The position numbers and the translations under genes were made by a program. From NCBI GenBank assembly GCA_039621445.1, contig CP154954.1:27803735-27867734 (forward strand): a stretch of DNA of 64,000 nt. The letters are read 5' to 3'. Numbering within the stretch: the stretch's first letter is position 1; each line of letters starts with the position of its first letter. A model generated the notes under the pieces. That model saw only the letters and a program-made list of their open reading frames with translations, ran no database searches and was not told where the DNA came from. Of this stretch, positions 13,908 through 63,526 are shown one piece after another. The stretch is from Euglena gracilis (lineage: Eukaryota).

Positions 13908-13937
13908 ACACTCGGAACCGCCTATTTTTGGCCAAAG

Positions 13938-15984: not shown

Positions 15985-16038
15985 CGGGGAAGAGGCGGGC
16001 TACTGTCGTGTGGCGACGTTGAAGAAAACCCTGGCCCA
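15985..16038 (+). other. 2A/StopGo peptide in element E
   Basis: RGRGGLLSCGDVEENPGP fits the D(V/I)ExNPGP consensus. Confidence 0.9.
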
Positions 16039-18910
16039 CGCACAGGGTAGCCAACGGAGAGAGGCCGCCAAACACGAAGGCAGGATGCTGCTCTTTCACG
16101 ACCGACTGAAAGTGGGACCAACCTGGACCCGGAATTATCGGTGGCCATTGAATTGGATGACCCATTGCCTGCCCTTGCCGCGCCCACGACTGTCCCGGTT
16201 ACAGCAGCGACGGCAGCCATGGAAACAGATGGCCCACCCCAGCCATTTCTGCCGGGCTGCAGAACGCCTGGGACCCCCTTCTCACAACGCTGTCCGACGC
16301 TCGAACCAACCTGGATGGCATCGCACAGGACCTCAGGGGCACGGTCTCACACATCCCTCGTGGCGCCGTACAGGCGGTCTCCCAACTCTACACCTCTCTT
16401 CTGAAGGACTACAACAGACACCCTTCATGGGAGTCCTCACACGCACTCTGGTGCATGCCCAAGGCAGTGCTGGCACCCTTGCCACGCGCTGGCAGGAATC
16501 ACTGGGCTCAGTTGGGAAGGACCATCAGTACAGTACTCTTCAGGGGATGGCACACGGCCCATTGCTGCCGGGGAAACCCTCCGACGCCTGGTGGCAAAAG
16601 TGCTAATGCGCCACACAGAAGTCCGCCGCTCCCTGGCTACCGCCTTGCCACAACAGCTGGGGGTAGGTGTACCGGACGCATGCGCATTGATAAGCATGGG
16701 CATTCAGCAGATAGTTGACGGCCTGTCCCATATCGGGAAGGTTGACTGGGGGTTACTCCAGCTGGATTTCTCAAATGCATTCAATTGCATATCAAGAGAG
16801 AACTTACTGGCCGAGGTCGCCGATAGATGTCCCCTCCCTGCTGCCGTGGTTGGAGAGCTGCTACGCACGCCATTCTCGGTTGTATCTGGGAAAGACATCC
16901 CTCCGAAGCAAGTCTGGTGTGCAGCAAGGGGACCCGTGCGGGCCGGCCGCATTTGCCCTCGGGATACAGCCATTGCTGGACAAACTGCAAGGCATCGTGG
17001 GCTGGCAAGCCTGGTACCTGGATGATGCCCACGTCATGGGCACACCGGAGCAGCTTGAGAGGGCAGTTTGGTTGATTGTATCTGAGGGACCACGGATTGG
17101 TGTAGGTCTCAACTTGGCGAAATGCAGACTGTGTGGTCCAGCCTTTGTGGAGCACGGAGAAGGCATCTTCAGGGCGTCCCGGTCGAGCCTTTCACAGCCG
17201 GCACCGGCATTCGCGCACTCGGCGCGCCTGTTTGCCACCCGGGTGGAACGCCTGAATTTGCCTCCCTCCTTTGGGAGGAGCGCCTCACCGGTGTCCAGAA
17301 GGCGTGCCACCTGTTACAATTGGTGCCGTCACCGCATCTACAATTCACTGTGCTCAGGCAATGCCTTGATGCCTGCAAAGTGAATGATTTGCTGCGAACC
17401 ACGCGCCTCTCGGGAGCTAAAATACAGTGCCATTCCTCCTCCAGCATCCTACGGGACAAAATGTCGGTCATCACCGCCCGCCCAATGGACGACAAACAAT
17501 GGGCACAGGCCTCACTTCCTGTCCGCTTGGGAGGACTGGGGATCCGAGACCCAGAAGCAGCCAGAACACCGGCCAGATGGGCAGCTATCCTGGGTTTCCT
17601 CTCCCGAGTGGACAGCACTCTGGGCCAACCGGAAGGCTGCCCTCAGCTTCCACGCGACCATGGCGAGACGGGCTTGCTAATTTCGAGTCTCACCAAAGGG
17701 TTGGCACCTCTCACTGACATCCTTGCGGACCCAAGCAATGTGAGCTCCTGTCCCCCACAATGACGAGACAGAAGTTTTGGACATATGAGGTCGTAAAAGT
17801 ACGGGCTGACCTACTTTTGGGCAGCTTTGCAGGAAACGACGCAGTCCGTTTTTACCTGCCAGCGGAAGCCACACGCCATGGCCTGGGCTGCGGTTAATCC
17901 CTCTGCTCCACTGAAAACACTCATTCCACCAGCCGAATTTAGAGCGCTGACGCAATGGTCTCTAGGGTGTGCAATTTGCCCGACAATGCCAGATGGTTCC
18001 TTGCCAGAATGCCCTCGTTGCCACCAGCAAATGGACTTTGGCGGAAATCGCCTTGTCTGCTGCCCAAAAAACAACACTTTGCGGCGACATGGTGCCCTTC
18101 AAACGTTTGTCGTGGAGCTTGCAAGGAAGGCGGGATTCATGGCCCGAAGAGAAGAGGTGGCAGACAACCAGACAAGGCTCGGCGATGTCTTCATTACCAG
18201 GGACGATGCTGACGGACCCGCAGCAGTGGATGTCACGGTGCGTCACCCGCTCCAGCCAGCCACTCCGGTCTCCACAAAAGAAGCCGTAGCACGGTGGCAC
18301 GAATTACAGGAAGCCAAAAACGCCGCAAATACGCAGCCACCTGTGAACGCCTTGGGTGGACGTTCATTCATTCATTTGTTCGTTCGTTCGTTCATCCCAT
18401 TCGTGCTGGACTGCTTTGGGGGCGTGGGGGAGCAGGCTGCAACCTTCATCACCAAATGCCTCCGCACTGTATTGGCTCAAACAGGTGTTTTTTCAACGAC
18501 GCTCATCTAAAGCCTCCGTCTGGCAAACCCTGAGTCTCACATTGGCAAGAGAAGTGGCCCGCCAGCTGGCATGCGGTGCGGTGGCGGAGCCATCTGGAGA
18601 GGTGGATCCCACCACCCATAGCCCATATGCAATGGATTGAGCAAAGATGAGATACCAATCTCACATCCCATCCCTCCAAAAAAAAACCGCAAGCACACAC
18701 AAAACACACACACACACACACACACCAGCCACCACGCCCTCCGCCTCTCACCCCCAACGCACCTCATCCGCCAAGTTTCCCCTCGTCCCTCCGTCTTCGC
18801 TGCTACCAAGACCGCTCGGCTTTACACGCCTTCTCCTGTACCTCTACCTCTGACAGACTGCTGCTTCCGCTTCTGTATATAGCACTCACCCTGAGCACTC
18901 AAATCCAGTA

Positions 18911-19138
18911 AACCCCCCCCCAAATAACCCCCCCCCCCCGGTTTGTTATTTGGGCACCCGAACTGAGGCCCCAGGGGGGGGGGGTGTTATTTGGGGGGGT
19001 GTTATTTTTACATGGAAAACCAAAGGAAAACAGGGGGGGGGGTGTTATTTGGGCGCTCGAAATCGGCCCCCGAGGGGGGGGGGTGTTATTTGGGGGGGGG
19101 GGTTATTTGGGGGGGGGGGGGGTGTTTGGGGGGGGTTT
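18911..19138. mobile_element. G/C-tract-rich MITE with TA target duplication
   Basis: Interrupts the conserved CCAGTA|GGCTGTG motif, with TA at 18909-10 and 19139-40; AACCCCCCCCCAAA...TTTGGGGGGGGTT termini. Confidence 0.8.
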
Positions 19139-19245
19139 TAGGCTGTGCCACTAGTCGGTGGACTCGGCTCGCCCCACCACCGTGTCCTTCTCCAGTGAGA
19201 AGAAGGCTGCAAGTCGTCTTTTTTTTTCCACATGAGACAAAAGTA

Positions 19246-22200
19246 CTGTGGTGGGGCGAACCGAATCCACCGACCAGTGGCACAGCCTACTGGATTTGAG
19301 TGTTCCGAGGAGACAGGGGCTATGGACAGATGGGGGAACCCCATGGATAGGCAGAGGTATCGACTGTCGCAGGGCTCAGCGGGTGGAAAACGGGCAAGGC
19401 CCATCTTCATTATAAAGTATAAAGCGCAGGGGGATGACAGGGTGAGGAGGTTCGCGGTGCGTGGGAGAAAGTGGGTGAGGAGGCGGTTGAATGGCAGGGA
19501 GGTTAAGGTGCCCGCGGGCAGCGGCAGTAGAGGCTTGTGCCTGTAGCGTTGAACCGTATTGTCCGTGTTCTGGGAGCAGTGGCTGCTTCGTAGGCTGTCT
19601 TGGTGCGCCCTCTGTGCCGGGAATGCCGGTAGCGGATGAATGCCTTTGTGTATCGTTTGCGCCGATGGCCTCGCCCTTTGGGCGGCCATCTGCGTCGTGC
19701 CTTGTCCTGATCTTTTGTCGGAGGTAGATGAGCCGCCGGTGAAGACGTGTAGTGGCCAGCCGGGGTCAGCCGGGTCGAGGTCCGTGTTGCTGGTATCGCT
19801 GTCAGATGTTAGATAGTGAATCAGCGAAGCACATACTTCGGTCGTAGCAACTGAGTGATCTGCTTGAACAGGGCCCATGCCAAGCTCTGGTAGCTCTCAG
19901 CCTGCCGCGTCAAACGCACGTCGCCTTGATCCCAGGAGGTCGATCGTTCGATCAGTCTTGTCAGCAGCTTGGCGCTCTCCGGGCCCAGGCCTCCCCATGT
20001 CCCAAATGCCAGCGTGGCAAAGGACCAGCCCCCGTTTCGGCACAATATGTAGTACTTGGCGTGCTTTGCGGTCTCCTTCCGTCTGAGGAAGGTTCTCCAT
20101 CGTTCCCTGGACGCTGTCCTCTCAGCAGACTGCCAGCCGTGTGCAACCGCGATGTCTACCGCGGTCGGTTTCCCGTCTTGCCATGTTGCCAGCAACAGGT
20201 CCGCTGGTCGCAGGGAGGCGTCTGGCTGGTTTGGTACTGGCACCTCGCGTTGGACACTCTGGCCGTTCGCGGACAGGAGGTTGAATAAGGCTTCCTGAAC
20301 GGCGTTGTGTCGGCTTGCAAAGTTGTTCCGAATGCAGCACATGTCGTGATCCCCGTGGATGTCTGCCACAGAATGGCACCCCGCGCACGTGGTTGGCGTG
20401 TCAGCCAGGGGCAGCCCAAGCCACCACTTCAGGCCAAGGCAGTAGTCGGCGGGCTCAATCACCGTGTGCAGAGCCTCATTGGGGGCTGCTGCCATCCAGC
20501 CGTGGCCGATACCGTTGAGCTGTTCCATAAGACGTGTCTGGTCCCTTGCAGACCACGTGGCGATGAGGGCGTCCACATGGGCCTTGGATAGTTGGGTCTG
20601 CCACCATTTCTGCGAGGTGTCATTTGCCGATGCAGAGGCGAAGGCTGCTGATGCTGTCAGCCGGTTGCTCTCAGGGTGACGGGTGCCGAGGACGGAGCCA
20701 AGGTCACTGGCGGCTTGCTGGCAGAGCCGGTCGTCCGGGCGGCCGCGTAGCTTGGACATGCGACCCGCTTATGTCCATGTGTGTAGAACTGGCACAGGGC
20801 GGCGGTACGGGCTGCTGCTTGGTGGGAGGCGGGAATACGAAGGCCACACCCACCTTGTGACAGCGGTAGCGAGGCCTGCAGGCTGTGGTCTGTGCTGAGG
20901 GCTTGGCCGATGATGTCCTCAAAGGCACCGAAGATCGTCTCACTGCACCGAATCACTTCACCCTGCGCCTGGTAGGGATCAGAGGCGCGCAGGAGGTGGT
21001 TAACTCTGCAGCCGTCCAGTCAAGACCTCAGGATGTGGTGCGCCAGCTGGGGGTCAGTGACCGAGGTGACTAGGTCCGCAGCCTGTTCCAGCTTGGTTGT
21101 TGCCTCCGTCCATGCTGCCACTGTGTGCCCTGCCGTGGTTGGGAAGTCGACGGGGCAGCCCAGGACAGTGATCCCAGAGCCCTCGACCCAGGGTACAACT
21201 TGAACCTTCTCGCGGTCAGGGAGTGCGCCAGCAGCCGGACCCCATACGACGCATTTCGCCGGGTTCAATTGGACCCCGTTGCGTGCGCCTTCGGTCCGCA
21301 GGAACTCGAGGCACTTCTGCAAAGCCCAGGGCTCACCGACAAGCACCCCATCATCCAGGTACCATGAGGACCAGAGCAACTCTGCTTGCTGGCTGATGGT
21401 CTCGCTGATGGTGTGGAGGCCCACTGCAAAGCCGATGGGTCCCAGGGGGCAACCCTGGTGTGTGCCTCTCGTGGAGTGGAGCACGCGTCCTCCGCTGAAC
21501 AACGGTGCCGGCTGGCCGTAGGCGAAGCGCAGGTAGTTGAAAAGCGCTGGAGTGCGCGTTTGCGCTTCTTGTAGAAGGACATTTCTGTCCGGTGTGTTGA
21601 AGGCGTTCTTCAGGTCCACCTGAAGAATGGCCCAGTTCCCCTGCGGATCCAGTTTCCGGACCAGACTTGGGTTGCCATGGCGACGGATTCGGACGCATTG
21701 GGGACCCCAACCCCTACCTGCAGGGGACTCAGCCGGCCCACTTAGTCCTTGGCGGCGCCGGTGTGTAGGAGGGCTTTCCCAACCAATCGCCGAAGGGGAA
21801 TCGCGCTTACCTGCCGTGACTCCCCGGTGCACCGTGGACCACATTATTATCAACCTGGTGGACAACTCCCCTATTGCCGAGCGCCCACCAAGACGGGCCG
21901 ATGGGAGCCTCTTGTCCTGCGGGGACATTGAAAGCAACCCAGGTCCGCCGGGAGGCAGAAAGAGGTCAGCCACGTCGGTTGTCGTGTCCGCGGAGGCGCC
22001 TCGTGACAGCACAAAACGATTTAGCACACCCAGCTGACGACACACCCGCGGCTGTGGTGGTCGACCAAAGCGGAAAGAACTCTGACCTCCGTCACGGTGG
22101 CCCGCCCGGAATCACCATCCCGCCCCAGCCGGCCAACCTCCAGGAGGTCTTCCTCTGCCGCGCAAACACGGTCCTTCATGTGCCTGCGGCCAACCAACGT

Positions 22201-22780
22201 GACGTGTCCGAGACCCTCTCCAATGTCATAGAGGAATACGTCAGCAGGCCAACCATGGACAGCCTGTTCGCCACCCTCGCCTTCCCCAAACTGGTGCTTC
22301 GGACAGTCCAAAGTGCGGGGCGTGAGGCCGATGAGGACATCTCCACCGCGATCAGGCGGCGCGTCCAACTGTTCCGGCAAGGGGACAATGGAACGCTGAT
22401 GACAGCGCTGAGAAGCGCCACCCGCCTCCCACCAGCGTCCATCGAGACGCGGGCAGCCAAAAGAGCACGCACCGAGCCCGCCGCCATACCGGCCGCTGTT
22501 CTCCGCCGTGCCCGCACGTTGGTGGGGGAAGGGGCCCCTGCGAAGGCCCTGCAAGTTCTCTTGTTCGAAGGAACCCACCGCTCTTCCGATCCGGCTGTCT
22601 GGGTCAAACTGCAGGAGTTGCATCCCGCTGGACGCCCAGTAAGCCTCAATGCGCTGCCCGGCGAAGTACCACCGTTCCCGGATGGTAAACAGGTGCGGTG
22701 GAAGGAGCTCCTCAGGGACGCAATACTCCGTTTCCCTCGGACCTCCTCGCCGGGCCCTTCTGGTTTGCGCCCTTGCGCCT
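19246..22780 (-). mobile_element. CRE-like element F with an inverted 5' segment
   Basis: Minus strand 19246-~21750: VDLKNAFN, GTHQGCPLGP, WYLDDG, CAGC-H-C knuckle, RPADLLL, KHAKY, 3' motif. Plus strand ~21750-22780: 2A motif and N-terminal region up to SSPGPSGLRP. Confidence 0.9.
21921..21947 (+). other. 2A/StopGo core in element F (copy at 49065-49091)
   Basis: GSLLSCGDIESNPGP; the duplicate reads TGRGSLLSCGDIESNPGP. Confidence 0.9.
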
Positions 22781-22848
22781 TGCCGCCTTATTTTTTTTGG
22801 ATTACTCTGGTGTGCTGGGTTAGGCCGAAGTCCTGTGCGGGTGAGAGT

Positions 22849-47293: not shown

Positions 47294-49994
47294 GATGTCT
47301 ACCGCGGTCGGTTTCCCGTCTTGCCATGTTGCCAGCAACAGGTCCGCTGGTCGCAGGGAGGCGTCTGGCTGGTTTGGTACTGGCACCTCGCGTTGGACAC
47401 TCTGGCCGTTCGCGGACAGGAGGTTGAATAAGGCTTCCTGAACGGCGTTGTGTCGGCTTGCAAAGTTGTTCCGAATGCAGCACATGTCGTGATCCCCGTG
47501 GATGTCTGCCACAGAATGGCACCCCGCGCACGTGGTTGGCGTGTCAGCCAGGGGCAGCCCAAGGCACCACTTTAGGCCAAGGCAGTAGTCGGCGGGCTCA
47601 ATCACCGTGTGCGGAGCCTCATTGGGGGCTGCTGCCATCCAGCCGTGGCCGATACCGTTGAGCTGATCCATAAGACGTGTCTGGTCCCTTGCAGACCACG
47701 TGGCGATGAGGGCGTCCACATGGGCCTTGGATAGTTGGGTCTGCCACCATTTCTGCGAGGTGTCATTTGCCGATGCAGAGGCGAAGGCTGCTGATGCTGT
47801 CAGCCGGTTGCTCTCAGGGTGACGGGTGCCGAGGACGGAGCCAAGGTCACTGGCGGCTTGCTGGCAGAGCCGGTCGTCCGGGGCGGCCGCGTAGCTTGGA
47901 CATGCGACCCGCTTATGTCCATGTGTGTAGAACTGGCACAGGGCGGCGGTACGGGCTGCTGCTTGGTGGGAGGCGGGAATACGAAGGCCACACCCACCTT
48001 GTGACAGCGGTAGCGAGGCCTGCAGGCGGTGGTCTGTGCTGAGGGCTTGGCCGATGATGTCCTTAAAGGCACCGAAGATCGTCTCACTGCACCGAATCAC
48101 TTCACCCTGCGCCTGGTAGGGATCAGAGGCGCGCAGGAGGTGGTTAACTCTGCAGCCGTCCAGTCAAGACCTCAGGATGTGGTGCGCCAGCTGGGGGTCA
48201 GTGACCGAGGTGACTAGGTCCGCAGCCTGTTCCAGCTTGGTTGTTGCCTCCGTCCATGCTGCCACTGTGTGCCCTGCCGTGGTTGGGAAGTCGACGGGGC
48301 AGCCCAGGACAGTGATCCCAGAGCCCTCGACCCAGGGTACAACTTGAACCTTCTCGCGGTCAGGGAGTGCGCCAGCAGCCGGACCCCATACGACGCATTT
48401 CGCCGGGTTCAATTGGACCCCGTTGCGTGCGCCTTCGGTCCGCAGGAACTCGAGGCACTTCTGCAAAGCCCAGGGCTCACCGACAAGCACCCCATCATCC
48501 AGGTACCATGAGGACCAGAGCAACTCTGCTTGCTGGCTGATGGTCTCGCTGATGGTGTGGAGGCCCACTGCAAAGCCGATGGGTCCCAGGGGGCAACCCT
48601 GGTGTGTGCCTCTCGTGGAGTGGAGCACGCGTCCTCCGCTGAACAACGGTGCCGGCTGGCCGTAGGCGAAGCGCAGGTAGTTGAAAAGCGCTGGAGTGCG
48701 CGTTTGCACTTCTTGTAGAAGGACATTTCTGTCCGGTGTGTTGAAGGCGTTCTTCAGGTCCACCTGAAGAATGGCCCAGTTCCCCTGCGGATCCAGTTTC
48801 CGGACCAGACTTTGGGTTGCCATGGCGACGGATTCGGACGCATTGGGGACCCCAACCCCTACCTGCAGGGGACTCAGCCGGCCCACTTAGTCCTTGGCGG
48901 CGCCGGTGTGTAGGAGGGCTTTCCCAACCAATCGCCGAAGGGGAATCGCGCTTACCTGCCGTGACTCCCCGGTGCACCGTGGACCACATTATTATCAACC
49001 TGGTGGACAACTCCCCTATTGCCGAGCGCCCACCAAGACGGGCCGAGGGAGCCTCTTGTCCTGCGGGGACATTGAAAGCAACCCAGGTCCGCCGGGAGGC
49101 AGAAAGAGGTCAGCCACGTCGGTTGTCGTGTCCGCGGAGGCGCCTCGTGACAGCACAAAACGATTTAGCACACCCAGCTGACGACACACCCATGGCTGTG
49201 GTGGTCGACCAAAGCGGAAAGAACTCTGACCTCCGTCACGGTGGCCCGCCCGGAATCACCATCCCGCCCCAGCCGGCCAACCTCCAGGAGGTCTTCCTCT
49301 GCCGCGCAAACACGGTCCTTCATGTGCCTGCGGCCAACCAACGTGACGTGTCCGAGACCCTCTCCAATGTCATAGAGGAATACGTCAGCAGGCCAACCAT
49401 GGACAGCCTGTTCGCCACCCTCGCCTTCCTCAAACTGGTGCTTCGGACAGTCCAAAGTGCGGGGCGTGAGGCCGATGAGGACATCTCCACCGCGATCAGG
49501 CGGCGCGTCCAACTGTTCCGGCAAGGGGACAATGGAACGCTGATGACAGAGCTGAGAAACGCCACCCGTCTCCCACCAGCGTCCATCGAGACGCGGGCAG
49601 CCAAAAGAGCACGCACCGAGCCCGCCGCCATACCGGCCGCTGTTCTCCGCCGTGCCTGCACGTTGGTGGGGGAAGGGGCCCCTGCGAAGGCCCTGCAAGT
49701 TCTCTTGTTCGAAGGAACCCACCGCTCTTCCGATCCGGCTGTCTGGGTGAAACTGCAGGAGTTGCATCCCGCTGGACGCCCAGTAAGCCTTGATGCGCTG
49801 CCCGGCGAAGTACCACCGTTCCCAGATGGTAAACAGGTGCGGTGGAAGGAGCTCCTCAGGGACGCAATACTCCGTTTCCCTCGGACCTCCTCGCCGGGCC
49901 CTTCTGGTTTGCGCCCTTGCGCCTTGCCGCCTTATTTTTTTTTTGGATTACTCTGGTGTGCTGGGTTAGGCCGAAGTCCTGTGCAGGTGAGAGT
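47294..49994. repeat. Direct duplicate of 20151-22848 (part of element F plus the 3' tip of G)
   Basis: Near-identical, including the F inversion junction; scattered SNPs and indels. Confidence 0.95.
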
Positions 49995-51571
49995 AATGCA
50001 CATACCAAGTTCTCAAGGAGGGAGGGGGGGAGAATCGAGGGTGAGGTGAAGGGCGGTGAAGGGCACAGTACGGAGGGGGGATTGCGAGTGTGAGAGGAAA
50101 GTGTACAGCGGCTGGGAAGGTTTAATAGAACGGCCATGGAGACTGTTGAGTGTTGAGGTTGTGGCAGCGACAAGTTTAGGTTTTGGGGAGTTGGCTCAGG
50201 GAAGGCTCTGTTTTCAGTGCGGTAAGGGTTTGGACGTCATTGTAGACTTGGTCCATTCGTTGCAAGGTGTTTTTTGCTTGTTTTTTGGTTTAATTGGTCT
50301 TGTGGTTAGTTATGCGTACGGTTGGCGTGTCATGGAGCCTTCGGCCCTGTGGTCAAATTGCTCACTCCGTTTCATATGGGCAATGGGTGGTGGGTTACAC
50401 CGTTCCAGATGGCTCCGCCACAGTTCCCCAAGCCTCAGGCGGGCCAGTTCTCTTGCCAATGTCTGACACAGGTTGCTGATGGTTGGGTACCTTTGTTTAC
50501 TTTTTTGACAAGTTGTGGATGGTTTAAGGACAATTTTTTGTTCTGGGTCTAGGAGTCGTAGTGGTCTTCTTTACAGACAATACGGCTGGTGTATGGTGTT
50601 GGTTACTTCTGGATCTGTGTCGTTGCCTGCATACCGTCCCCAGATTACTTGTCGCGCGATCTCTCGCGCAACAGTTATTGATAGAAGTTGCCATGTGTCT
50701 GCTTCAGTTTTGCGTTTTGACCATGCATCTTGTTGACCGAGGAGAAGTTTCATCAGTGTTGACATTAAGGATAGCGCTTCTTGGCCTAGGCTGCCATAGC
50801 AGTCAACAACAAATGGAAGGCAGGTCCATCCCATCCTCCCACAGGTGGCGTCATATTTTGAATGTTTTTCTTTCTCTTGGCGTTCATACCATTCAGTTAG
50901 TTCAGCTGTGTCACGCAACGGTCTGTACGGTGCTGCTGTGTGTCTCACTGTGATGTCCACTGCTCCAGGACCATTGGCGTCAAGTCTGCTGATGAGGACA
51001 TCGCCCGGGCGTGTTCTCTCTGGACCTCCTTGTTCTTTTTTTTGCTGTAAACCCAGCATCATGTGCCAGTTGGAACACAAAGTCCTGGATTGCACCATGT
51101 CGCCGCGTGATGCCACTTGAGCTGCAGCATACAAGGTGATTACCCAGGTTGACCATTGGCTTGGTGCAGCGTGGGCACGTTGATCCCGTTGGTGGGCAAA
51201 CTGGTGCTCCCAGTGACCACTTTAGAAATCCTTTGAATTCGGCAGAAGCGACCAATGTTTTCAGTCCACAGGATGGTGTGACAGAAGCCCAGGCCATTGC
51301 GTGGGGCCGCTGTTGGCTTGCGAACCGGACGGCGTCTTGACCGTGAAGGTTGGAGGATAATACCTTTTGTCGTTGTTTCGCAAAGCATTCACCCCACCAC
51401 TTCTGTTGAATGTGAGGGCTTTGGGCTTCGTTCAGGAGTGATACATCCGCGGCCCATGTTTGCGTTGGGGGAGTTCCTTCGAGGACGGAGTTGGCAGAGG
51501 ACAGGCACTCCGCAGTGTCTTTCGGTACTCCTCTGCCAGGCCCAGGGTGCGTCTGCCATTGCTGACAAACG

Positions 51572-53137
51572 TCACAATGCCGGATATACGTGCTGGGAGA
51601 CGTTCCCGTGATGGGTCCCGAATTCCGAGTCCGCCGAGGGTAGGGTGGCCTGAGCCCATTGGTTGTCATCGATTGGGGATCCAACAATGTTGCTCATTGT
51701 GTTCCTGATTTCTTTGGTCAACAGAGCACATGCGTCATTTGCCTGCCCCAGTTCTGTTGCACGCAGGAGGTCATTAACTTTGCAAGCATCTAGGCAGGTT
51801 CGTAAGAGGCAGAACTGAATATGGGCTTGCGGCAGGTTCAAAAGTGCCCGGCAAGCTTTCTGCACACCTGTTGCACGTTCAGCCCACACTTCCCCCGCAA
51901 AGCCTCCACTTTGTGGATGGCATACCGGGATTCCCAGGGCCCGTATACCAGAATTAGGAGAGTAGTTCACGATTGGGACTGCACGAAGTGGGCTGTTTTG
52001 CGGCATTTCAGCACGATTGGCTTCTGTTGCTGCAGGGCCCCACAGGCGGCATTTTTTTGCGTTGAGGTGTATGCCTAGTAGCGTCCCCTGTCGTTGAATT
52101 TCTGTAATTGCTGCATGTAATTGTGGGAGGGTTCCCAGGATGTGTCCATCATCCAAATACCACAATTGCAGTGGCACCACGTCTTGCAAGGACTCGACGA
52201 GAGATTGCAACGCCAAGGCGAATCCGGCTGGGCCACAAGGGTCCCCTTGTTGTACGCCAGAGGCACTCCGAAGGTGTGATGACCCACAAAAGAGCGGGCT
52301 GTGTTCGACGTAGCAACTCTCGAACCAAACGTACGCCTCCGGGCAGCGTTTAGCCACTTCAGCAACGACTGTCTTTCTTTTCACACAATTAAAAGCATTG
52401 CTGAAATCTACCTGTAACAAAGCCCAGGTGTTGTCCTGTTGCATGTGCAGGTGATTCACTTCTTGCTGCAGTCCCATAGCAATGAGTTCACATGCCCCCT
52501 GGACCCCTACACCGCATTGTAGTGGCTGCAGTTCTTTAAGGAGGTCCCTGATTTTGGGGTGCCTCATCAAATATTTGCCCACCAATCGGCGCAGGCATTC
52601 CCCAGCTGCAATTGGTCGCGTGCCATCCTTCTTTGGGTCAGGAATGGGGTTGGCATTGCCAAGCTCATCAAGGTTTTCGCTTGGATTGCAGGGTTTTCGA
52701 AGAGGAGTCAAACGGGCACCAGCGAAAACCCATGCCGCAGAGTTGTGAATTCCGTTTGTCAAACATGTTCGGACGAATTGGTCCAAAATTGTGAGGAGTT
52801 GTTCTGATTGTGTCCCCAGGAGATCAGAGAGTATGTCTTTAAGATGATCTGGACGAAGTCCAGACGGTCCTGGTGAGGACTCCTTCGGGAAAGACATGAC
52901 TGCTTTCCGTATTTCAATTAGGCGCTCCCTGGTTGCATCTTCACTGAGATCGAATTCGAGGCGAGGGAAGTCCGGAGGCAGATTTTGCCTTCCAGGTTGG
53001 GGTTCAGGAGGGTGCAAGGCAGCCAACCGTTCCAAGATTAGCGGGTCATCTGCATCTTGGATTCCATCAGAAGTTGGCATGCGGCAGGCTTTACTGACCG
53101 CTCCATGGCTGACAAGGCTTTGAACACGGTTGCACAA
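51572..53137 (-). pseudogene. Reverse transcriptase domain of G1
   Basis: SSPGPSGLR, GTRPIAAGECLRRLV, QCGVGV, VDFSNAFN, GVQQGDPCGP, WYLDDG, LNAKKC. Confidence 0.95.
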
Positions 53138-53939
53138 TCTTTATTGGCTTTCTGCATCGAATTTTTTTGTCTGACTTCGTGTTCTCTTCTTTGGGTTTTG
53201 TGCATCGCGAATTTGGCGAGTCTCATCCCACGAAGCTTCTGTGAACCGGTTGAGGTAGGCATTGGCTCCCTCAGAAATTTTCTGTCCAACTGCAGCCCAA
53301 TGGCTTTTCCCGCTCCGCTTCAGTGGAGCCAGCACAGCTTTTGGGAAGCACCAAAGTGTGTGTAGGGTTTCCTATCCTGGTTTTGATACAAAGCGACTGA
53401 GGGTGCTGCAAAAGGCGAGCCCAACGTTTCGCAACGCTCCCCGTGGGATATGGACCAACGTGCCTCGCGTGTCTTGGGAAATTTCTTCCCAAGATGGCTG
53501 CAGTGGTGGGCAAGGTTGCGAGAAGGGAGTGACTTGCAGCGTATCAGCGTTCGTCGAGGATTGCGCTGGTGCTACAGCCACGGGGTGCTGCGGCCTTCGA
53601 CCACTTTGGCACTGTTGCTCTTGCCCTTGTGGTGAGGACGGCACAAAATTCTCAATCATCCCCTGGCCCTGCGGCGCACACCCGTGAATTTCGGAAATCG
53701 CTGAGCGCACCCGGGACTCTAGTTCGTCAATTACCATGATTTGTTCAGCTGCGGGTGCCCCGGGGCCCCCGTTCAAACTGGGAAACGGCATTATAGCCTG
53801 GGACAAAGTAGGCGAGAACAGCGGCGTCGAGTGCATTGGAAACCAAGATCCAAGGAGCGGTAGCTCCGTCAGCCACAGCAGAGGTCTGTGCGGCTGAGGC
53901 CATTTCAACGTCCTCCTGCTGGGGAGGGCGGGTTTTTGT

Positions 53940-55302
53940 GGGACCTGGGTTGCTTTCAATGTCGCCACAACTGGCAAGGCTTTTGCCCCTGCCACACCAG
54001 GGGGGACTGTACCCATACCGCGTTTTTTCCTGGTCAATCGGTTGCCGTAAGTGGTTGGCGTGCCCTGGGGCCACATTAGACAACTTAGAAGGCCCTGGGG
54101 CCATAGTGCAAGTCGGTCGTCGGCAATGGGGCCGGGTGCTAGGTCGCAGGGATAGGGGTCCTTCACGTGGGGTTATCCGGTGAATAGGTCCTGGCTCAAG
54201 CTGAACGTCACCACAAAGTGTGACATCTTGGTGTGTGGGCCTCTCGGTTTTGACAGCGTGGTTAGGGCTTATGTCACCTTGTTGGTCACCGCGTTGGCAG
54301 TTTGGTTGTCTTTGTGCTGTCCGTCGTGCCCTCCGGACGTGACGGTCAACAAAAAAACTGCTGATCTTGTCGGACGTAACAAGGCCATGATGTCCAGGAT
54401 ATCAACGGTGTGTACATTCAATGGGGAGAGGTCGGACGAGGAGGGCTCCGTTGGAGGTACTTTGGGGAAAGTGCTCTCGGCCAGAGAACGTTGGGTAGTG
54501 TCATTTGGTGAATGGGGGGCAGGTAGAAATGAAAAGCCTCGCCGATGTTGCATACTTCGGACCATAAACAAGTCAGCAACCACATAATGGCATGCACACT
54601 CGATGGGGAGTCGTGACGTGGTGGTCGATGTGGCCATAGCCCTATGAGCACAAACAGAACTCCTCTCAAAACTTCCCAACATTCGGTGAGCTCATAGACG
54701 GTAGTGTCCTGAACCAGGACATCGGAAGGGAAGGCGTCTCGGAACGTTTGAAGTTCTGCATCCACCTCTTGAAGGCTCGCCAGCAGTCTGTGCCGAACGA
54801 AGTTTTCTTGAAGTCCCCTGGAGACAGGGATTGTCGGTCTTTCCATGGTGGCCAGACGGAAGTAGATGGGTCCTGGTTGTGTTTGGACGTCACCATGGGT
54901 GGTGATTCGTTCCCCCCTACTTGTCGGCTGGTGTCCTTCTGAAAACTTTTCCCGGGTTTGTTCTACGGTGTATCCTCGGCTTGTTACAGAGTGTACTTTT
55001 GCTGTCTCAGTAGATGGAAATACTGTGGCTGAAAAAACAGGGCAGGTTTCCCTGTGGTGCAGGCACCAACCTGCCGAGGCAGTGATGGTTTCAATGTCAC
55101 ACAAAGTGCATTTCAGCCAGTATGTAGCTTTGGGAAGAAGTGTACGGGAGGAGCCATCGGGGCCTTGCCGCAATGGTATTTCGGCCTTGATCCGAAAGAA
55201 AGCAGTCATGTTCATGGCAACAAGTTGGTCCAATAGATCCATGACTTCACCACAGGGTCCATCAAATGCCGTCGGCGGGCCTGGATTGGTTTCCACATCA
55301 CC
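53940..55302 (-). other. Four 2A-like motifs in G1
   Basis: GDVETNPGP 55276-55302; GDVQTQPGP 54868-54894; GDVQLEPGP 54186-54212; GDIESNPGP 53940-53966. Confidence 0.85.
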
Positions 55303-57343
55303 CATTGTTGTCAGGGAATCACCTCGCCCCGTCTTCAGAAATGCGTCTTCCGGCTTCTTCCCCCCGTGTGGGCCTGCAGAGCAGAGGTGTATGTTGCCGA
55401 CTGTTTCTGCCATGTGGAATTTTTTTGTGGCAGCACAAGAGTAATAGTCCGACAGGGAGTCATTTGAGTCATCAAGATCGCTGGCGGTCCATACAGACGG
55501 GGAAAGACGATCAGCCTATCCAACCTCACACGCAAACTGTAACGGTCTGGGCATGTCATACATCTGCCAAATTCTTGGGCAGTATCGCCAGGCAATGGGC
55601 AGGGTTGGCTCTCGGGAGGGTGTCTGCCTCTTCTTTGTCCTCGGGGGGCGGACTGCTTCTGCTGCAGGCACTTTTTGTTTGATTTTTTGTGCGATAGCTC
55701 GGCGTACTTTTTCTATGTGCAACATGTCCACTCCCTCTTCACGTTGTTCGTCTGGTCGGTGTTGATGAAGAATCTGGGCGATTCTGATCCGTTCCAGGAT
55801 GAGGTTCTTTTTTGGTGGGGGGGGGCGATTGCACAACGTTTGTCGCTGCCAGTGGCAACGTGAGTTTCATGTCTGTGTGCACCATTTTTTGTGACTGCCA
55901 AATGTCCACTGTTCTGCCAATGTCGACCCACTTTTCCTGAATGTTGGCCAGTTTTCTGGCGACCATCTCGTGAAATAAAATGCCTCCTGCTTGCTGTCTC
56001 ATGCGCCTTCTCCAAAAAAATTCTTCCCTGAAGGACCGAAACTCTGGTGTTTCCCAAACTGGGACCCCTTCAAGGGGGGTGTTGGGTGGGGAGGCTGGTA
56101 AATCTGTTGCCTGGGGGGGTCTTGCCATTGAAAGGGGCTGGGTTCCTCCTGCAGGATCACTGTGCCCAGTTTTGCCCACTGTGTGCCATCAAACATGGTG
56201 GGTTTTGTTGGAATTTTAAAAATGCGAAATGGTGGGCCTGGCCCCCCCCCTCTCTTGCAGGGGGGCTGATATTGGGGGGCTGGTGCTGAGATCTTTTGGG
56301 GTTGCATTTGGCTGGGGTTGATGATCCTCCTCTTTTGGGTGGGGGGGGGGTTGTTTTGCAGACTCCCTTTGATACGGAGTTGCCTTGGGATGAAATTCTT
56401 GATCCACTTGTTTTACTGGGTGAAGGTATTGTGTTGAGTTGTCCCCTCTTTGGGGGGGACTTTGTGAGACAAAAGACAAAGGGAAAGCTGCAGGCAGAAG
56501 AGCACATTGGAAGGCTGATGGTGATGCCAGTACCACATCTGGGATTAAGGGTGCTGGCAGGCTAGGGTTGTGTAATGGTGTTGGGGGGTACTTCTGAACT
56601 CTGGCCTGTGCTGAAAAAGGCTCTGAGGCTTCTGAAGAGTTCAGCCTCTCTCCTTCTCTGCTCCTCTTCTCTGATCCAATTCTTCCTCTGGTCATCTTCT
56701 CTGCTCCAGTTTGATTGCAGTGGTTGCTGAGATTGCTGGGGTTCACCCCAAAGGTTGGTCTGTGATGGAATGTACATTTCTATGATTGATGTGACAGATG
56801 GACATACTTGATTTCTGCCCACTGGTGGGCATTGGAATGGGTTGTTCACTGGAATGCCCACTGATGGGCTTGACTGTGGAATGCCCACTGATGGGCTTGC
56901 TGTACAGTGGGGCCCCAGACTCACTTGCTGATGGAGCTGGGGCTGAGGAGAACTCTGTTGAGATATATGATAACTGGGTCGACCTCTCTGCCATGGGGGC
57001 TTGTAATCTCTTCCAAACCTTCTCTGTAGGTACTCTTCATGCTCTTCCCTCTCTTGCCATGTCCTCTTCTTTCTCTGTGAGCTGCTGTGTTGACTTTCTC
57101 TGTCACTATGTACAGGGCGGTCAGCAATGAGTCGTTGTGCCACAGCAGTGGTTAGCACAGGCACCAACAGCGGTAACAACATCTTGGCCAGCAGCTCCAA
57201 CTGTCCAGTGTCCACTGCAACAGTAGGTGTACTTGAAGGGTTGGTTGTGGTAGCAGCTTGGTTGACAAGGGGTGTATTGTCTTGAGCCTTGGGGTCTTCT
57301 GGAGGGCCATCCGGCCACTTTGCAGCCATGGTGATTATGCAGA

Positions 57344-57368
57344 CGAAAAAAAATAGACACTCAGAAAG
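57344..57368 (-). other. Euglenid spliced-leader exon copy at the 5' end of G1
   Basis: CTTTCTGAGTGTCTATTTTTTTTCG matches 25 of the 26 nt of the Euglena gracilis SL as I recall it; followed by TCTGCATAATCACC-ATG, not by an SL-RNA intron. Confidence 0.9.
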
Positions 57369-57451
57369 CCTTATGAGTGTCTTATGAGAATTTTTTTTTG
57401 GAAATTGGAACTCTCCGACCTGTCTTCAGCGGCCTAGGAGGATCACTCCGA

Positions 57452-60400
57452 GCCGAAGTCCTGTGCGGGTGAGAGTAATGCACATACCAAGTTCTCAGGG
57501 TGGGAGAGGCGAGAGTCGAAGGTGAAATAGAAGGGCGGTGAGGGGCACAGTACGGAGGGGAGATAGCGAGTGTGAGAGGAAAGTGTACAGCGGCAGGGAA
57601 GGTTCAATAGAACGGCCACGGGGACTGTTGAGTGTTGAGGTTGTGGCAGCGACAAGTTTATGTTTGGGTTTAGGGGAGTTGGCGCAGGGAAGGCTCTGTT
57701 TTCAGTGCGGTAAGGGTTTGGACGTGTTTTTAGTCTTGTGGTTGGTTATGCGTACGGTTGGTGTGTCATGGAGCCTTCGGCCCTGTGGTCAAATTGCTTA
57801 CTCCGTCTCATATGGGCAATGGGTGGTGGGATCCACCGTTCCAGATGGCTCCACCACTGTTCCTCAAGCCAATTGACAGCCACTTCTCTTGTCAATGTGG
57901 GACACAGGTTGCCGATGGTTGGGTACCGTTGTTTACTTTTTTGACAAGTTATGAATGGTTTAAGGACAATTGTTTGTTCTGGGTCTAGGGGTCGTAGTGG
58001 TCTTCTTTACAGACAATACGGCTGGTGTATGGTGTTGGTTACGTCTGGATCTGTGTCGTTGCCTGCATACCGTCCCCAGATTACTTGTCGCGCGATCTCT
58101 CGCGCAACAGTGATTGATAGAAGTTGCCATGTGTCGGCCTCAGTTTTGCGTTTTGACCATGCATCTTGTTGACCGAGGAGAAGCTTCATCAGTGTTGACA
58201 TTAAGGATAGCGCTTCTTGGCCTAAGCCGCCATAGCAGTCAACAACAAATGGAATGCAGGTCCATCCCATCCTCCCACAGGTGGCGTCATATTTTGAATG
58301 TTTTTCCTTCTCTTGGCGTTCATACCATTCAGTTAGTTCAGCTGTGTCACGCAACGGTCTGTACGGTGCTGCTGTGTGTCTCACTGTGATATCCACTGCT
58401 CCAGGACCATTGGCGTCAAGTCTGCTGATGAGCACATCGCCCGGGCGTGTTCTCTCTAGACCTCCTTGTTCTTTTTTTGCTGTAAACCCAGCATCATGTG
58501 CCAGTTGGAACACAAAGTCCTGGATTGCACCATGTCGCCGCGTGATGCCATTTGAGCTGCAGCATACAAGGTGATTACCCAGGTTGACCATTGGCTTGGT
58601 GCAGCGTGGGCACGTTGATCACGTTGGTGGGCAAACTGGTGCTCCCAGTGACCACTTTAGAAATCCTTTGAATTCGGCAGAAGCGACCAATGTTTTCAGT
58701 CCAGAGGATGGTGTGACAGAAGCCCAGGCCATTGCGTGGGGCCGCTGTTGGCTTGCGAACCGGACGGCGTCTTGACCGTGAATGTTGGAGGATAATACCT
58801 TTTGTCGTTGTTTCGCAAAGCATTCACCCCACCACTTCTGTTGAATGTGAGGGCTTTGGGCTTCGTTCAAGAGTGATACATCCGCGGCCCATGTGTGCGT
58901 TGGGGGAGTTCCTTCGAGGATGGAGTTGGCAGAGGACAGGCACTCCGCAGTGTCTTTCGGTACTCCTCGGTCTGCCAGGCCCAGGGTGCGTCTGCCATTG
59001 CTGACAAACGTCACAATGCCGGATATCCGTGCTGGGAGACGTTCCCGTGATGGGTTCCGAATTCCGAGTCCGCCATGACGCACAGGTAGGGTGGCCTGAG
59101 CCCATTGGTTGTCATCGATGGGGGATCCAACAATGTTGCTCATTGTGTTCCTGATTTCTTTGGTCAACAAAGCACATGCGTCATTTGCCTGCCCCAGTTC
59201 TGTTGCACGCAGGAGGTCATTAACTTTGCATGCATCTAGGCAGGTTCGTAAGAGGCAGAACTGAATATAGGCCTGCGGCAGGTTCAAAAGGGCCCGGCAA
59301 GCTTTTGCACACTTGTTGCACGTTCAGCCCACACTTCCCCCGCAAAGCCTCCACTTTGTGGATAGCATACCGGGATCCCAGGGCCCGTATACCAGAATCG
59401 GGGGAGTATTTCACGATTGGGACTGCACGAAGTGGGCTGTTTTGCGGCATTTCAGCACGATTGGCTTCTGTTGCTGCAGGGCCCCACAGGCGGCATTTTT
59501 TTGCGTTGAGGTGTATGCCTAGTAGCGTCCCCTGTCGTTGAATTTCTGTAATTGCTGCATGTAATTGTGGGAGGGTTCCCAGGATGTGTCCATCATCCAA
59601 ATACCACAATTGGAGTGGAACCACGTCTTGCAAGGACTCAACGAGAGATTGCAGCGCCAAGGCGAATCCGGCTGGGCCACAAGGGTCCCCTTGTTGTACG
59701 CCAGAGGCACTCCGAAGGTGTGATGACCCACAAAAGAGCGGGCTGTGTTCGACGTAGCAACTCTCGAACCAAACGTACGCCTCCGGGCAGCGTTTAGCCA
59801 CTTCAGCAACGACTGTCTTTCTTTTCACGCAATTAAAAGCATTGCTGAAATCTACCTGTAACAAAGCCTAGGTGCTGTCCTGTTGCATGTGCAGGTGATT
59901 TACTTCTTGCTGCAGTCCCATAGCAATGAGTTCACATGCCCCCTGGACCCCTACACCGCATTGTAGTGGCTGCAGTTCTTTAAGGTGGTCCCTGATTTTG
60001 GGGTGCCTCATCAAATATTTGCCCACCAATCGGCGCAGGCATTCCCCAGCTGCAATTGGTCGCGTGCCATCCTTCTTTGGGTCAGGAATGGGGTTGGCAT
60101 TGCCAAGCTCATCAAGGTTTTCGCTTGGATTGCAGGGTTTTCGAAGAGGAGTCAAACGGGCACCAGCGAAAATCCATGCCACTGAGTTGTGAATTCCGTT
60201 TGTCAAACATGTTCGGATGAATTGGTCCAAAATTGTGAGGAGTTGTTCAGATTGTGTCCCCAGGGGATCAGAGAGCATGTCTTTGAGACGATCTGGACGA
60301 AGTCCAAACGGTCCTGGTGAGGACTCCTTCGGGAATGACATGACTGCTTTCCGTATTTCAATTAGGCGCTCCCTGGTTGCATCTTCACTGAGATCGAATT

Positions 60401-63400
60401 CGAGGCGAGGGAAGTCCGGAGGCAGATTTTGCCTTCCAGGTTGGGGTTCAGGAGGGTGCAAGGCAGCCAACCGTTCCAAGATTAGCGGGTCATCTGCATC
60501 TTGGATTCCATCAGAAGTCAGCATGCGGCAGGCTTTACTGACCGCCCCATGGCTGACAAGGCTTTGAACACGGTTGCACAATCTTTCTTAACTTTCTGCT
60601 TCGAAATTTTTTGTCTGACTTCGTGTTCTCTTCTTTGGGTTTTGTGCATCGCGAATTTGGCGAGTCTCATCCCACGAATCTTCTGTGGACCGGTTGAGGT
60701 AGGCATTGGCTCTCTCAGTAATTTTCCGTCCAACTGCAGCCCAATGGCTTTTCCCGCTGCGCTTCAATGGAGCAAGCACAGCTTTTGGGAAGCACCAAAG
60801 TGCGTGTAGGGTCTCCCATCCTGGCTTGGACACAAAGCGACTGAGGGTGCTGCAAAAGGCGAGCCCAACGTTTCGCAACGCTCACCGTGGGATATGGACC
60901 AACGTGCCTCGACTGTCTTGGGAAATTTCTTCCCAAGATGGCTGAAGTGGTGGGCAAGGTTGCGAGAAGGGAGTGACTTGCAGCGTATCAGCGTTCGTCG
61001 AGGATTGCGCTGGTGCTGGGGCCACGGGGGGCTGCGGCCTTCGACCATTTAGGCACTCTTGCTCTTGCCCTTGTGGTGAGGGTAGGCGAGAACAGCGGCG
61101 TCGAGTGCATTGGAAACCAAGATCCAAGGAGTGGTCGCTCCGTCGGCGGCACAGCAGAGGTCTGTGCGGCTGAGGCCATTTCAACGTCCTCCTGCTGGGG
61201 AGGGCGGGTTTTTGTGGGACCTGGGTTGCTTTCAATGTCGCCACAACTGGCAAGGCTTTTACCCCTGCCACACCAGGGGGGACTGTACCCATACCGCGTT
61301 TTTTCCTGGTCAATCAGTTGCCGTACATGGTTGGCGTGCCCTGGGGCCACATTAGACAACTTAGAAGGCCCTGGGGCCAGAGGGCAAGTCGGTCGTCGGC
61401 AATGGGGCCGGGTGCTAGGTCGCAGGGATAGGGGTCCTTCACGTGGGGTTATCCGGTGAATAGGTCCCGGCTGGAGCTGAACGTCACCACAAAGTGTGAC
61501 ATCTTGGTGTGTGGGCGTCTCGGCTATGACAGCGTCGTTAGGGCTTATGTCACCGTGTTGGTCACCTCGTTGGTAGTTTGGTTGTCTTTGTGCTGTCCGT
61601 CGTGCCCTCCGGACATGACGGTCAACTGAAACTACTGATCTTGTCGGACGTAAGAAGGCCATGATGTCCAGGATATCAACGGTGTGCACATTCAATGGGG
61701 AGAGGTCGGACGAGGAGGGCTCCGTTGGGGGTACTCTGGGGAAAGTGCCTCTCGGCCGGAGAACGTTGGTAGTGTCATTAGGTGAATAGGGGGCAGGTAG
61801 AGGTGAAAGGCCTCGCCGATGTTGCATACTTCGGACCATAAACAAGTCAGCAACCACATAATGGCATGCACACTCGATGGGGAGTCGTGACGTGGTGGTC
61901 GATGTGGCCATAGCCCTATGAGCACAAACAGAACTCCTCTCAAAACTTCCCAACATTCGGTGAGCTCATAGACGGTAGTGTCCTGAACCAGGACATCGGA
62001 AGGGAAGGCGTCTCGGAAAGTTTGAAGTTCTGCATTCACCTCTTGAAGGCTCGCCAGCAATCTGTGCCGAACGAAGTTTTCTTGAAGTCCCCTGGAGACA
62101 GGGATTGTCGGTCTTTCCATGGTGGCCAGACGGAAGTAGATGGGTCCTGGTTGTGTTTGGACGTCACCATGGGTGGTGATTCGTTCCCCCCTTCAAGTCG
62201 GCTGGTGTCCTGCTGAAAACTTTTCCCGGGTTTGTTCTGCCGTGTATCCTCGGCTTGTTACGGAGTGTACTTTTGCTATCTCAGTAGATGGAAATACTGT
62301 GGCTGAAAAAAACAGGGCAGGTTTCCCTGTGGTGCAAGCACCAACCTGCCGAGGCAGTGATGGTTTCAATGTCACACAAAGTGCATTTCAGTCAGTATGT
62401 AGCTTTGGGAAGAAGTGATTGGGAGGAGCCATCGGGGCCTTTCCGCAACGGTAGTTCGGCCTTGATCCGAAAGAAATCAGTCATGTTCATGGCAACAAGT
62501 TGGTCCAATAGATCCATGACTTCACCACAGGGGCCATTAACTGCCGTCAGCGGGCCTGGATTGGTTTCCACATCACCCATTGTTGTCAGGGAATCACCTC
62601 GCCCCGTCTTCAGAAATGCGTCTTCCGGATTCTTCCCCCCGTGTGGGCTTGCAGAGCGGGGGTGTATGTTGCCGACTGTTTCTGCCATGTGGAATTTTTT
62701 TTGTGCCAGCACAAGAGTAATAGTCCGACAGGGAGTCATTTGAGTCATCAAGATCGCTGGCGGTCCATACAGACGGGGAAAGACGATCAGCCAATCCAAC
62801 CTCACACGCAAACTGTAACGGTCTGGGCATGTCTTCCATCTGCCAAATTCTTGGGCAGTATCGCCAGGCAATGGGCAGGGTTGGTTCTCGGGAGGGTGTC
62901 AGCCTCTTCTTTGTCCTCGGGGGGCAGACTGCTTCTGCTGCAGGCACTTTTTGTTTGATTTTTTGTGCGATAGCTCGGCGTACTTTATCTATGTGCGACA
63001 TGTCCACTCCTTCCTCACGTTGTTCCTCTGGTCGGTATTGATGAAGAATCTGGGCGATTCTGATCCGTTCCAGGATGAGGTTCTTTTTTGGTGGGGGGGG
63101 GGGGCGATTGCACAACGTTTGGCGCTGCCAGTGGCAACGTGAGTTTCATGTCTGTGTGCACCATTTTTTGTGACTGCCGAATGTCCACTGTTCTGCCGAT
63201 GTCGACCCACTTTTCCTGAATAATGGCCAGTTTTCTGGCAACCATCTCGTGAAATAAAATGCCTCCTGCTTGCTGTCTCATGCGCCTTCTCCAAAAAAAT
63301 TCTTCCCTGAGGGACCGAAACTCTGGTGTTTCCCAAACTGGGACCCCTTCAAGGGGGGTGTTGGGTGGGGAGGCTGGTAAATCTGTTGCCTGGGGGGGGT

Positions 63401-63526
63401 CTTGCCATTGAAAGGGGCTGGGTTCCTCCTGCAGGATCACTGTGCCCAGTTTGGCCCACTGTGTGCCATCAAACGTGGTGGGTTTTGTTGGAATTTTAAA
63501 AATGCGAAACGGTGGACCTGGCCCCC
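57452..63526 (-). mobile_element. 5'-truncated CRE-like retrotransposon G2 (same family as G1)
   Basis: Colinear with 49970-56246; 2A-like motifs at 62551-62577, 62142-62168, 61462-61488 and 61216-61242; RT 59220-60581; RLE 58007-58591; A9 tail at 57391-57399. Confidence 0.92.

Follow-up and report, generated by a model that had tools for sequence, protein, structure and literature searches.

A spliced leader at the 5′ ends of R2-group retrotransposons of Euglena gracilis, probably copied from trans-spliced element mRNA

Introduction

How does a retrotransposon come to carry the spliced leader (SL) of its host as its own 5′ end? The question is raised by a stretch of 64,000 nucleotides of the Euglena gracilis genome (assembly GCA_039621445.1, contig CP154954.1, positions 27,803,735 to 27,867,734 of the forward strand), which is referred to below as the window and numbered from its first letter. 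It contains G1, a retrotransposon without long terminal repeats (non-LTR), the first bases of which are those of the E. gracilis SL, and two decayed relatives, C and D, that begin in the same way. The analysis reported here indicates that this SL was probably copied from a trans-spliced, A-tailed mRNA of the element.

Non-LTR elements insert without an upstream promoter, and each faces the task of producing an RNA that is full-length and has a defined 5′ end. Known solutions are an internal promoter (L1), co-transcription followed by ribozyme cleavage (HDV-like, R2) and residence in a host gene. In trypanosomatids, the elements CRE1/CRE2, SLACS and CZAR are inserted at a fixed position within the SL exon of SL-RNA genes.

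Results and discussion

Complete copies begin with the spliced leader

A preliminary description of this DNA had stated that G1 begins with the SL 14 nt before its ATG, and the match proved to be exact (25/25, with the ATG at 57329). The features concerned are the following.

49935-57368, minus strand: element G1, a non-LTR retrotransposon of 7.4 kb, from the SL to a run of ten A (A10)
57344-57368, minus strand: SL of G1 (nt 2-26 of the 26-nt E. gracilis SL), forming the 5′ terminus of the element and reading CTTTCTGAGTGTCTATTTTTTTTCG
57330-57343, minus strand: 14-nt leader TCTGCATAATCACC between SL and ATG, repeated after the SL of other families either in full or in its first 8 nt
15053-15077, minus strand: decayed SL of element D, with 3 mismatches in 24
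13885-13907, minus strand: decayed SL of element C, found by a gapped scan

In the available text of PMC6242988, the E. gracilis SL is printed as ACTTTCTGAGTGTCTATTTTTTTTCG, and the SL of G1 is identical to it at 25 of 25 positions, as it is to the SL of all five SL-RNA gene copies in the four reference loci described below (L001-L004). The preliminary description had allowed for a host SL that differs from the sequence seen in G1; no such difference was found for nucleotides 2-26. The first base, A1, is replaced by a G at 57369. When up to 3 mismatches were allowed, the SL matched the window twice (57344-57367 and 15053-15076), compared with no match in 100 shuffles. Gapped alignment gave scores of 52 for G1, 40 for D and 35 for C, with a reporting threshold of 26 at which five shuffled windows yielded 0, 0, 2, 1 and 0 matches. 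The SL of C is altered by a change of GAG to GAC, which is also found in D, by one further T-to-C change and by a 2-nt deletion.

The SL is present in each of the three copies of which the 5′ end is complete (G1, C and D), and all three begin at its second base, C2. None of them has a second, tandem relic SL further downstream, short SL-like scraps being seen upstream only. SL variants do precede ATGs in C and D, as had been described, but the frames that these ATGs open reach a stop after 2 and 4 codons (ATG TCT TGA and ATG TCG GAC AAC TGA, respectively); they are mini upstream open reading frames (ORFs) or products of decay, not ORF starts.

The spliced leader belongs to the insert

An SL found in genomic DNA could be that of an SL-RNA gene. 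To provide a reference for such genes, metagenome contigs were scanned for the SL followed by GT, which yielded four loci (L001-L004) with five gene copies; two of these lie within the known tandem repeat of SL-RNA and 5S rRNA. In all five copies, the sequence before the SL ends in ..TTACA and the sequence after it begins with GTATA(T/C)A... BLAST comparison of L001-L004 with the window gave a sole match, at 57344-57368 (25/25), and neither the upstream region nor the intron of the SL genes matched anywhere in the window. This comparison of flanks, set beforehand as the test of the claim that the SL copies lie outside SL-RNA genes, failed to refute it. The claim that no SL intron follows the SL was also borne out, the leaders of G1, C and D resembling the SL-gene introns at chance level only (p > 0.39 in 15 of 15 comparisons). 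The possibility that the leader derives from the SL intron was rejected on the same comparisons.

The limits of G1 are marked by a target-site duplication (TSD) and by its A-tail.

57369-57373, plus-strand reading: left TSD copy, CCTTA, directly abutting the SL
49930-49934, plus-strand reading: right TSD copy, CCTTA, with T as a possible sixth base, directly outside A10
49935-49944, minus strand: A10 tail of G1 (T10 on the plus strand), read from the sequence

A direct repeat of 5-6 bp, CCTTA(T), encloses everything from the SL to A10. Since this repeat lies outside both the SL and A10, the SL is the 5′ end of the inserted cDNA and does not belong to the target. The chance of a 5-nt match at two independently fixed boundaries was estimated at about 0.001-0.002. 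We also considered the possibility that the G preceding CTTTCTG in G1 is a reverse-transcribed cap. This is not needed, because the G at 57369 belongs to the TSD.

Self-comparison and tblastn searches with the G1 frames indicated that the window is a nest of related retrotransposons, among them the following.

57429-63526, minus strand: element G2, 94-96% identical to G1 and 5′-truncated by about 1.1 kb; its 3′ boundary, near 57427-57437, was taken from contig joints
12355-11234, minus strand: reverse transcriptase (RT) of element C, heavily frameshifted
13908-15052, minus strand: body of element D, in which a 30-nt leader of the family type runs straight into the CCHC/endonuclease part with the 3′ untranslated region
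57374-57428, minus strand: spacer between the 3′ end of G2 and G1, comprising a non-family tail, A9 (57391-57399) and 16 nt with an inverted SL-like piece

The SL is absent from the 5′ end of G2 (at 63526) and from element E, which is 5′-truncated and has its 5′ part inverted as F. Runs of A were found at the 3′ ends of G1 (A10), G2 (A9), E (A9) and D (A5). The TSD around SL and A10, the 3′ A-runs and the SL-less, 5′-truncated copies support the proposal, made in the preliminary description, of an RNA intermediate that is both SL-leadered and polyadenylated. Taken with the starts at C2, they are what target-primed reverse transcription leaves behind when it copies an SL-capped, A-tailed RNA.

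Element D was also considered as a trans-spliced internal fragment. Its first 30 nt after the SL match the consensus of a multi-copy leader (seen in contigs with a loose end at 57336), and D is therefore an internally deleted copy; the first interpretation was rejected on this ground.

SL-headed copies lie downstream of resident 3′ ends

The upstream flanks of the three SL-headed copies had been described as all different. Their sequences do differ, but two of the three are 3′ ends of elements of the same group and in the same orientation, that of G2 before G1 and that of D before C. Similarly, the statement that no SL is present at 3′ ends holds for G1, whereas the SL of the next element lies within 30-60 nt of the 3′ ends of G2 and D. 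In the latter case, the conserved 3′ motif of D is followed by A5, then by 17 nt, then by the SL of C.

The same arrangement was found outside the window. Logan contigs of four public runs, labelled 'DNA?' (X1, X2) or 'RNA?' (X15, X16), were aligned to 56600-58100. The summed contig depth in X1 and X2 reached tens of thousands across the whole stretch, which implies that the family is highly repeated. In these two runs, 11 joint rows connect the outer edge of the SL (57366-57369) with the 3′ end of G (57427-57437). Ten of the 12 rows listed (table 5c of the analysis) came from such joints, with 8 different fillers of 15-28 nt, some ending in A-runs and some containing direct or inverted scraps of SL; the equivalent of the filler in the window is 60 nt long (57369-57428). 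SL-headed copies are therefore found recurrently, in the window and in the 'DNA?' contigs, 15-60 nt downstream of the 3′ end of another copy, and the D-to-C junction, consisting of a resident 3′ end, a short flank and an SL-headed copy, is of the same type. Reading these joints together with the TSD of G1, we infer that the newcomer is the downstream, SL-headed copy and that the filler is the resident's own flank. Head-to-tail stacking, which the preliminary description had missed, may amount to some kind of preference for a target other than SL genes; one TSD and the contig joints point to insertion near resident 3′ ends.

Other contigs extended the association of SL and leader beyond G. Loose ends at 57336 (11 and 13 contigs) represent families other than G in which the SL is followed by the same 8 bases at the start of the leader. 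More generally, contigs with loose ends at 57327-57339 carry the SL and the first 8-17 bases of the leader, followed by 5′ ends of the C or D type; one 'RNA?' contig among these is of the C type. In X1 as in X2, there is one contig in which the SL (57346-57368) is fused to 57214, the position directly following TTGCAG on the sense strand; this is the product expected of trans-splicing at an internal acceptor followed by retrotransposition. A full 26-nt SL followed by non-intron sequence was also found in DNA at 792-816 of locus L005, a contig from a bacterial metagenome-assembled genome (Pontimonas sp.); it is euglenid-like contamination of that genome and another SL-headed retrocopy. The SL pattern had 0 matches in viral contigs.

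Two side observations concern these junctions. The plus strand of the spacer at 57374-57399 resembles a degenerate SL running in the opposite direction (a 9-nt exact inverted match plus T9; score 11, p about 0.006), and this piece predates the arrival of G1 in its target. In addition, two element pairs of the window are arranged tail to tail, 52 and 66 nt apart, which suggests insertion beside resident 3′ ends.

Origin of the spliced leader

Copying of the SL from a trans-spliced, A-tailed element mRNA is the explanation that we consider probable. The transposition intermediate would be the mature messenger, which like other Euglena mRNAs would start with the 26-nt SL and finish with an A-tail. 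Target-primed reverse transcription that reached the end of this RNA would write the SL into DNA. Full-length copies would start at nucleotide 2 of the SL, the cap-adjacent A remaining uncopied, and the absence of A1 might reflect a modified cap-proximal base; reverse transcription that stopped early would give copies without SL. New copies would land a few tens of bases downstream of a resident 3′ end and so build arrays in which each junction consists of a 3′ end, a short flank and the SL. A few master loci with an AG acceptor would supply the RNAs to which the SL is added by trans-splicing, most SL-headed daughters being presumably dead ends. Within this explanation, re-acquisition of the SL is mildly preferred over its inheritance.

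Several points weigh against copying from a trans-spliced mRNA. No convincing TSD was found for C or D, and a TSD could be defined for only one of the three SL-headed copies (G1). The evidence from the four runs consists of contigs, not reads, and the DNA and RNA labels are guesses of the tool. In the contigs joining the SL to 57214, the last two bases of the SL (CG) are unconfirmed. The sole 'RNA?' contig on the 5′ region of G1 (from X15, 57103-57343) stops exactly at the SL boundary; this may reflect two alternative upstream sequences, but is a weak hint at best. Parts of the stretch have no RNA cover, an observation from one run and at contig level. Donor copies, with a leader preceded by a polypyrimidine-AG in place of the SL, were not found in the window, where the leader occurs once per type. 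Furthermore, SL-headed copies end in ..TCG before the leader and can therefore not be re-spliced at the same site, which leaves the propagation of so abundant a family unaccounted for. Finally, the GAG-to-GAC substitution common to C and D fits inheritance of the SL.

These last points lead to the alternative that survives best, though we consider it unlikely: the SL and the leader of about 14 nt would be a heritable 5′ module, transcribed from the DNA copy through an internal initiator or by read-through of arrays, and not re-added in each cycle. Such a module would explain why an AG acceptor is absent from the SL/leader junction of SL-headed copies, yet the contigs with an SL at the internal TTGCAG acceptor need a fresh addition of SL. 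It would also explain why C and D have the same SL substitution; we estimate that this coincidence has a chance of about 0.1, and as proof of inheritance it was rejected as too weak. The SL with the same leader start is common to at least three families with differing ORFs, and SL-headed copies are very numerous in contigs, both as an inherited module would predict. On the other hand, the SL of G1 is exact while the rest of G1 departs from the family majority at a dozen sites or more within 740 nt, and we know of no promoter in the Euglena SL exon.

Less likely still is that the elements keep the SL specificity of CRE, SLACS and CZAR and insert beside an SL already present in DNA, either in SL-RNA genes or in older SL-headed retrocopies. 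This specificity is established for the CRE clade, and a same-orientation SL does lie within 30-60 nt after the 3′ ends of G2 and D, in an arrangement of 3′ end, filler and SL that many 'DNA?' contigs repeat. Yet the fillers are heterogeneous, as would be ordinary flanks of resident copies, and the flanks are unlike SL-RNA genes. What follows the SL is always the leader of an element and never the intron. Moreover, the position of CCTTA(T) outside the SL indicates that G1 together with its SL is the insert and that the tail of G2 was already there.

A chance resemblance, an assembly chimera or contamination by cDNA, for which no supporting point was found, can be practically dismissed, since none of 100 shuffles gave a match, the SL occupies homologous positions in three copies, two separate 'DNA?' runs have contigs with the junctions and a TSD brackets G1.

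A broader proposal, which we put forward only tentatively and regard as doubtful, is that the SL and the short conserved leader are a functional 5′ module of an entire group of R2-like elements in Euglena. The elements would aim at the 3′ flank of their own kind, the resulting arrays would be transcribed through, and SL trans-splicing, coupled to formation of the upstream 3′ end, would cut out unit-length, capped and translatable RNAs. If this were true, the mRNA-capping pathway of the host would have been recruited as the device that defines the 5′ end of the element, and trypanosomatid elements, by residing in SL genes, would represent a derived or sister way of solving this problem.

G1 is related to R2-group elements

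The coding features of G1 were assigned as follows.

56565-57329, minus strand: ORF1, 255 aa, an open frame beginning with the ATG at 57329
53940-55515, minus strand: N-terminal region of the long ORF, containing four 2A-like motifs (D[VI][EQ]x[NQE]PGP), recognized by motif and homology
51575-53140, minus strand: RT frame, 522 aa (PF00078, E 1.6e-13)
50574-51693, minus strand: CCHC knuckle and restriction-like endonuclease (RLE) region in two frames, recognized from the frames and a profile alignment

No Pfam match was obtained for ORF1. The N-terminal part of the long ORF is homologous to residues 125-233 of P0001, one of the long relatives, and G1 is frameshifted relative to its best relatives. 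Element E also contains PF00078 (E 1.9e-13). In public protein sets, the best relatives of the G1 RT are 45-52% identical and up to 1849 aa long; of the 120 relatives listed, three bear an organism name (Helianthus, Symbiodinium and Ephydatia). A family profile (A2) was built from 26 relatives picked from these 120. It matched solved R2 proteins with an E-value of 1.2e-31 from the RT to the C-terminus (A2 258-973 corresponding to R2 413-1135), compared with about 1e-8, in the RT only, for L1 ORF2. A PDB search with the single RT frame of G1 gave 0 matches, so that the R2 match required the family profile. The endonuclease-region motifs CPRC..H..CC and RPGDV..D.. are readable in the G1 frames, C-terminal to the RT. 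No Exo_endo_phos match, which would have pointed to an N-terminal apurinic/apyrimidinic endonuclease, was found in 8 frames of G1 and E or in 5 relatives. Judging from an RT followed by CCHC and RLE regions, from the TSD and from 5′ truncation, the G-type elements are classed as RLE-type (R2-group) non-LTR retrotransposons. The label 'CRE-like' used in the preliminary description appears to reflect only the domain order, which is common to the whole R2 group.

The 2A-like 'ribosome skipping' motifs (e.g. GDVETNPGP, GDIESNPGP) are found on the minus strand at 53940-55299 and 61216-62574 and on the plus strand at 16015-16038, 21924-21947 and 49068-49091. They number four per G copy and one each in element H, in F and in F's duplicate, and they are also present in P0001 and P0002. 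Ahead of the RT, the long relatives P0001, P0002 and P0024 contain an SLBP-like RNA-binding domain (PF15247, E 2e-13; PDB 4l8r, E 4e-6) and a weak Dam-like segment (PF05869), which is above the Pfam cut-off in P0024 and below it in P0001 and P0002. Neither was detected in G1.

Comparison with known systems

The Euglena elements resemble R2 and other RLE elements in the succession of RT, CCHC knuckle and PD-(D/E)xK-type endonuclease, as reflected in the A2 profile match, and in their short TSD, frequent 5′ truncation and the conserved structured 3′ end that several of the window's families possess. They differ in that they are not in rDNA, that their 5′ end is the host SL rather than the product of a self-cleaving ribozyme, and that they have 3′ A-runs and multiple N-terminal 2A-like sites.

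With the CRE clade they have in common a euglenozoan host, the RLE architecture, an association with the SL and a poly(A) tail. In contrast to that clade, the SL (nt 2-26) is unsplit here; it stands at the element's own 5′ end, inside the TSD, and the flanks are not those of SL genes. Site-specific insertion inside the SL exon of SL-RNA genes, a feature of the CRE clade, was not found, since only 25 SL bases match and the SL is intact. According to the available text of PMC10161547, SLACS-type RTs have been reported in Diplonema.

The principle of a DNA-encoded SL as a tag of retroposition is already known from dinoflagellates and flatworms. In the available texts on dinoflagellate retrogenes, DNA-encoded SL remnants mark retroposed, trans-spliced mRNAs (PMC12014239, PMC5585692, PMC3942190). 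As in these, the SL is encoded here in DNA at the 5′ end of an intron-less, A-tailed copy; however, the dinoflagellate copies described there come from host genes that were copied in trans, and tandem relic SLs are often seen in them, whereas the retrotransposon itself is tagged here and relic SLs are found in 0 of 3 copies. A flatworm study from 2025 reports 597 SL-like loci inside LTR elements and long interspersed nuclear elements (LINEs), with the suggestion that they are integrated transcripts of trans-spliced retrotransposons (PMC12582326). The principle is the same, but in the text available these loci form a by-product note on partial leaders, without element anatomy, whereas the Euglena SL is complete, has a fixed junction with the leader and lies within the TSD.

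We found no description of SL-headed retrotransposons in Euglena in the available open-access literature (articles without supplements). Within that literature, we likewise found the following features undescribed for Euglena: an abundant R2-group family in which all full-length copies have a complete SL, a fixed junction between SL and conserved leader, an SL inside the TSD, and head-to-tail stacking.

In Zepp of Chlorella, which forms self-targeting LINE clusters, insertion at or near resident 3′ ends builds arrays. The position of new copies near resident 3′ ends is a likeness to this system that serves only as a lead.

A euglenid family with SL-headed full-length copies points to a fourth route by which a non-LTR element can obtain a defined 5′ end, namely SL trans-splicing. 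It also offers a point of comparison for asking what binds the related trypanosomatid elements to SL genes. In a genome of 2.4 Gb, the SL would serve as a natural molecular tag by which events of full-length retrotransposition could be counted. In the available text of PMC11252322, repeats make up 58.84% of the E. gracilis genome in total, with 32.7% of the genome listed as 'Unknown' and 1.49% as LINEs (Table 4 of that paper). The present findings are also a warning for annotation, as SL matches in euglenid DNA would mostly not be SL-RNA genes.

Further features of the window and of SL-gene repeats

The 3′ ends of several families in the window, G not being among them, share a conserved motif of about 50 nt, found at the following positions.

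9118-9185, plus strand
9211-9278, minus strand
9758-9825, minus strand
13925-13992, minus strand
19134-19190, plus strand
19233-19300, minus strand

It is predicted to fold into two hairpins, for which covariation is slight (1 of 15 pairs being compensatory). In element H, this motif is interrupted at 18910-19138 by runs of G followed by TGTTATTTGG in at least 3 copies.

The region 22849-47291 is a tandem array with units of 5.2-6.5 kb that are 88-98% alike. Each unit contains an SL-like motif on the plus strand (at 25485, 31974, 37102, 42383 and 47143), which consists of ACTTTCTG, then 4 nt in place of the middle of the SL, then a T-run ending in CG or CA. It may be the decayed SL of another retrocopy that was later amplified. 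The array is flanked by a 2.7-kb duplicate (20151-22848 and 47294-49994; 99% identical), which contains E on the minus strand and its inverted 5′ part, F, on the plus strand, in a twin-priming-like arrangement with about 85 codons missing at the inversion. Both the joint to the tail of G1 (T8 versus T10) and some 50-60 nt from the 3′ end of G are part of the duplicate; the duplication is therefore younger than the insertion of G1.

Two diverged copies (68-78%) of another long element are arranged head to head at 1-3773 (minus strand) and 4871-7713 (plus strand); no SL was seen between them (3600-5100 inspected). Rfam gave 0 matches for the whole window. In the SL-RNA/5S rRNA repeats of L004 and L001, the spacer contains three to four TTAGGG-type telomere-like repeats, the period in L004 being 782 bp.

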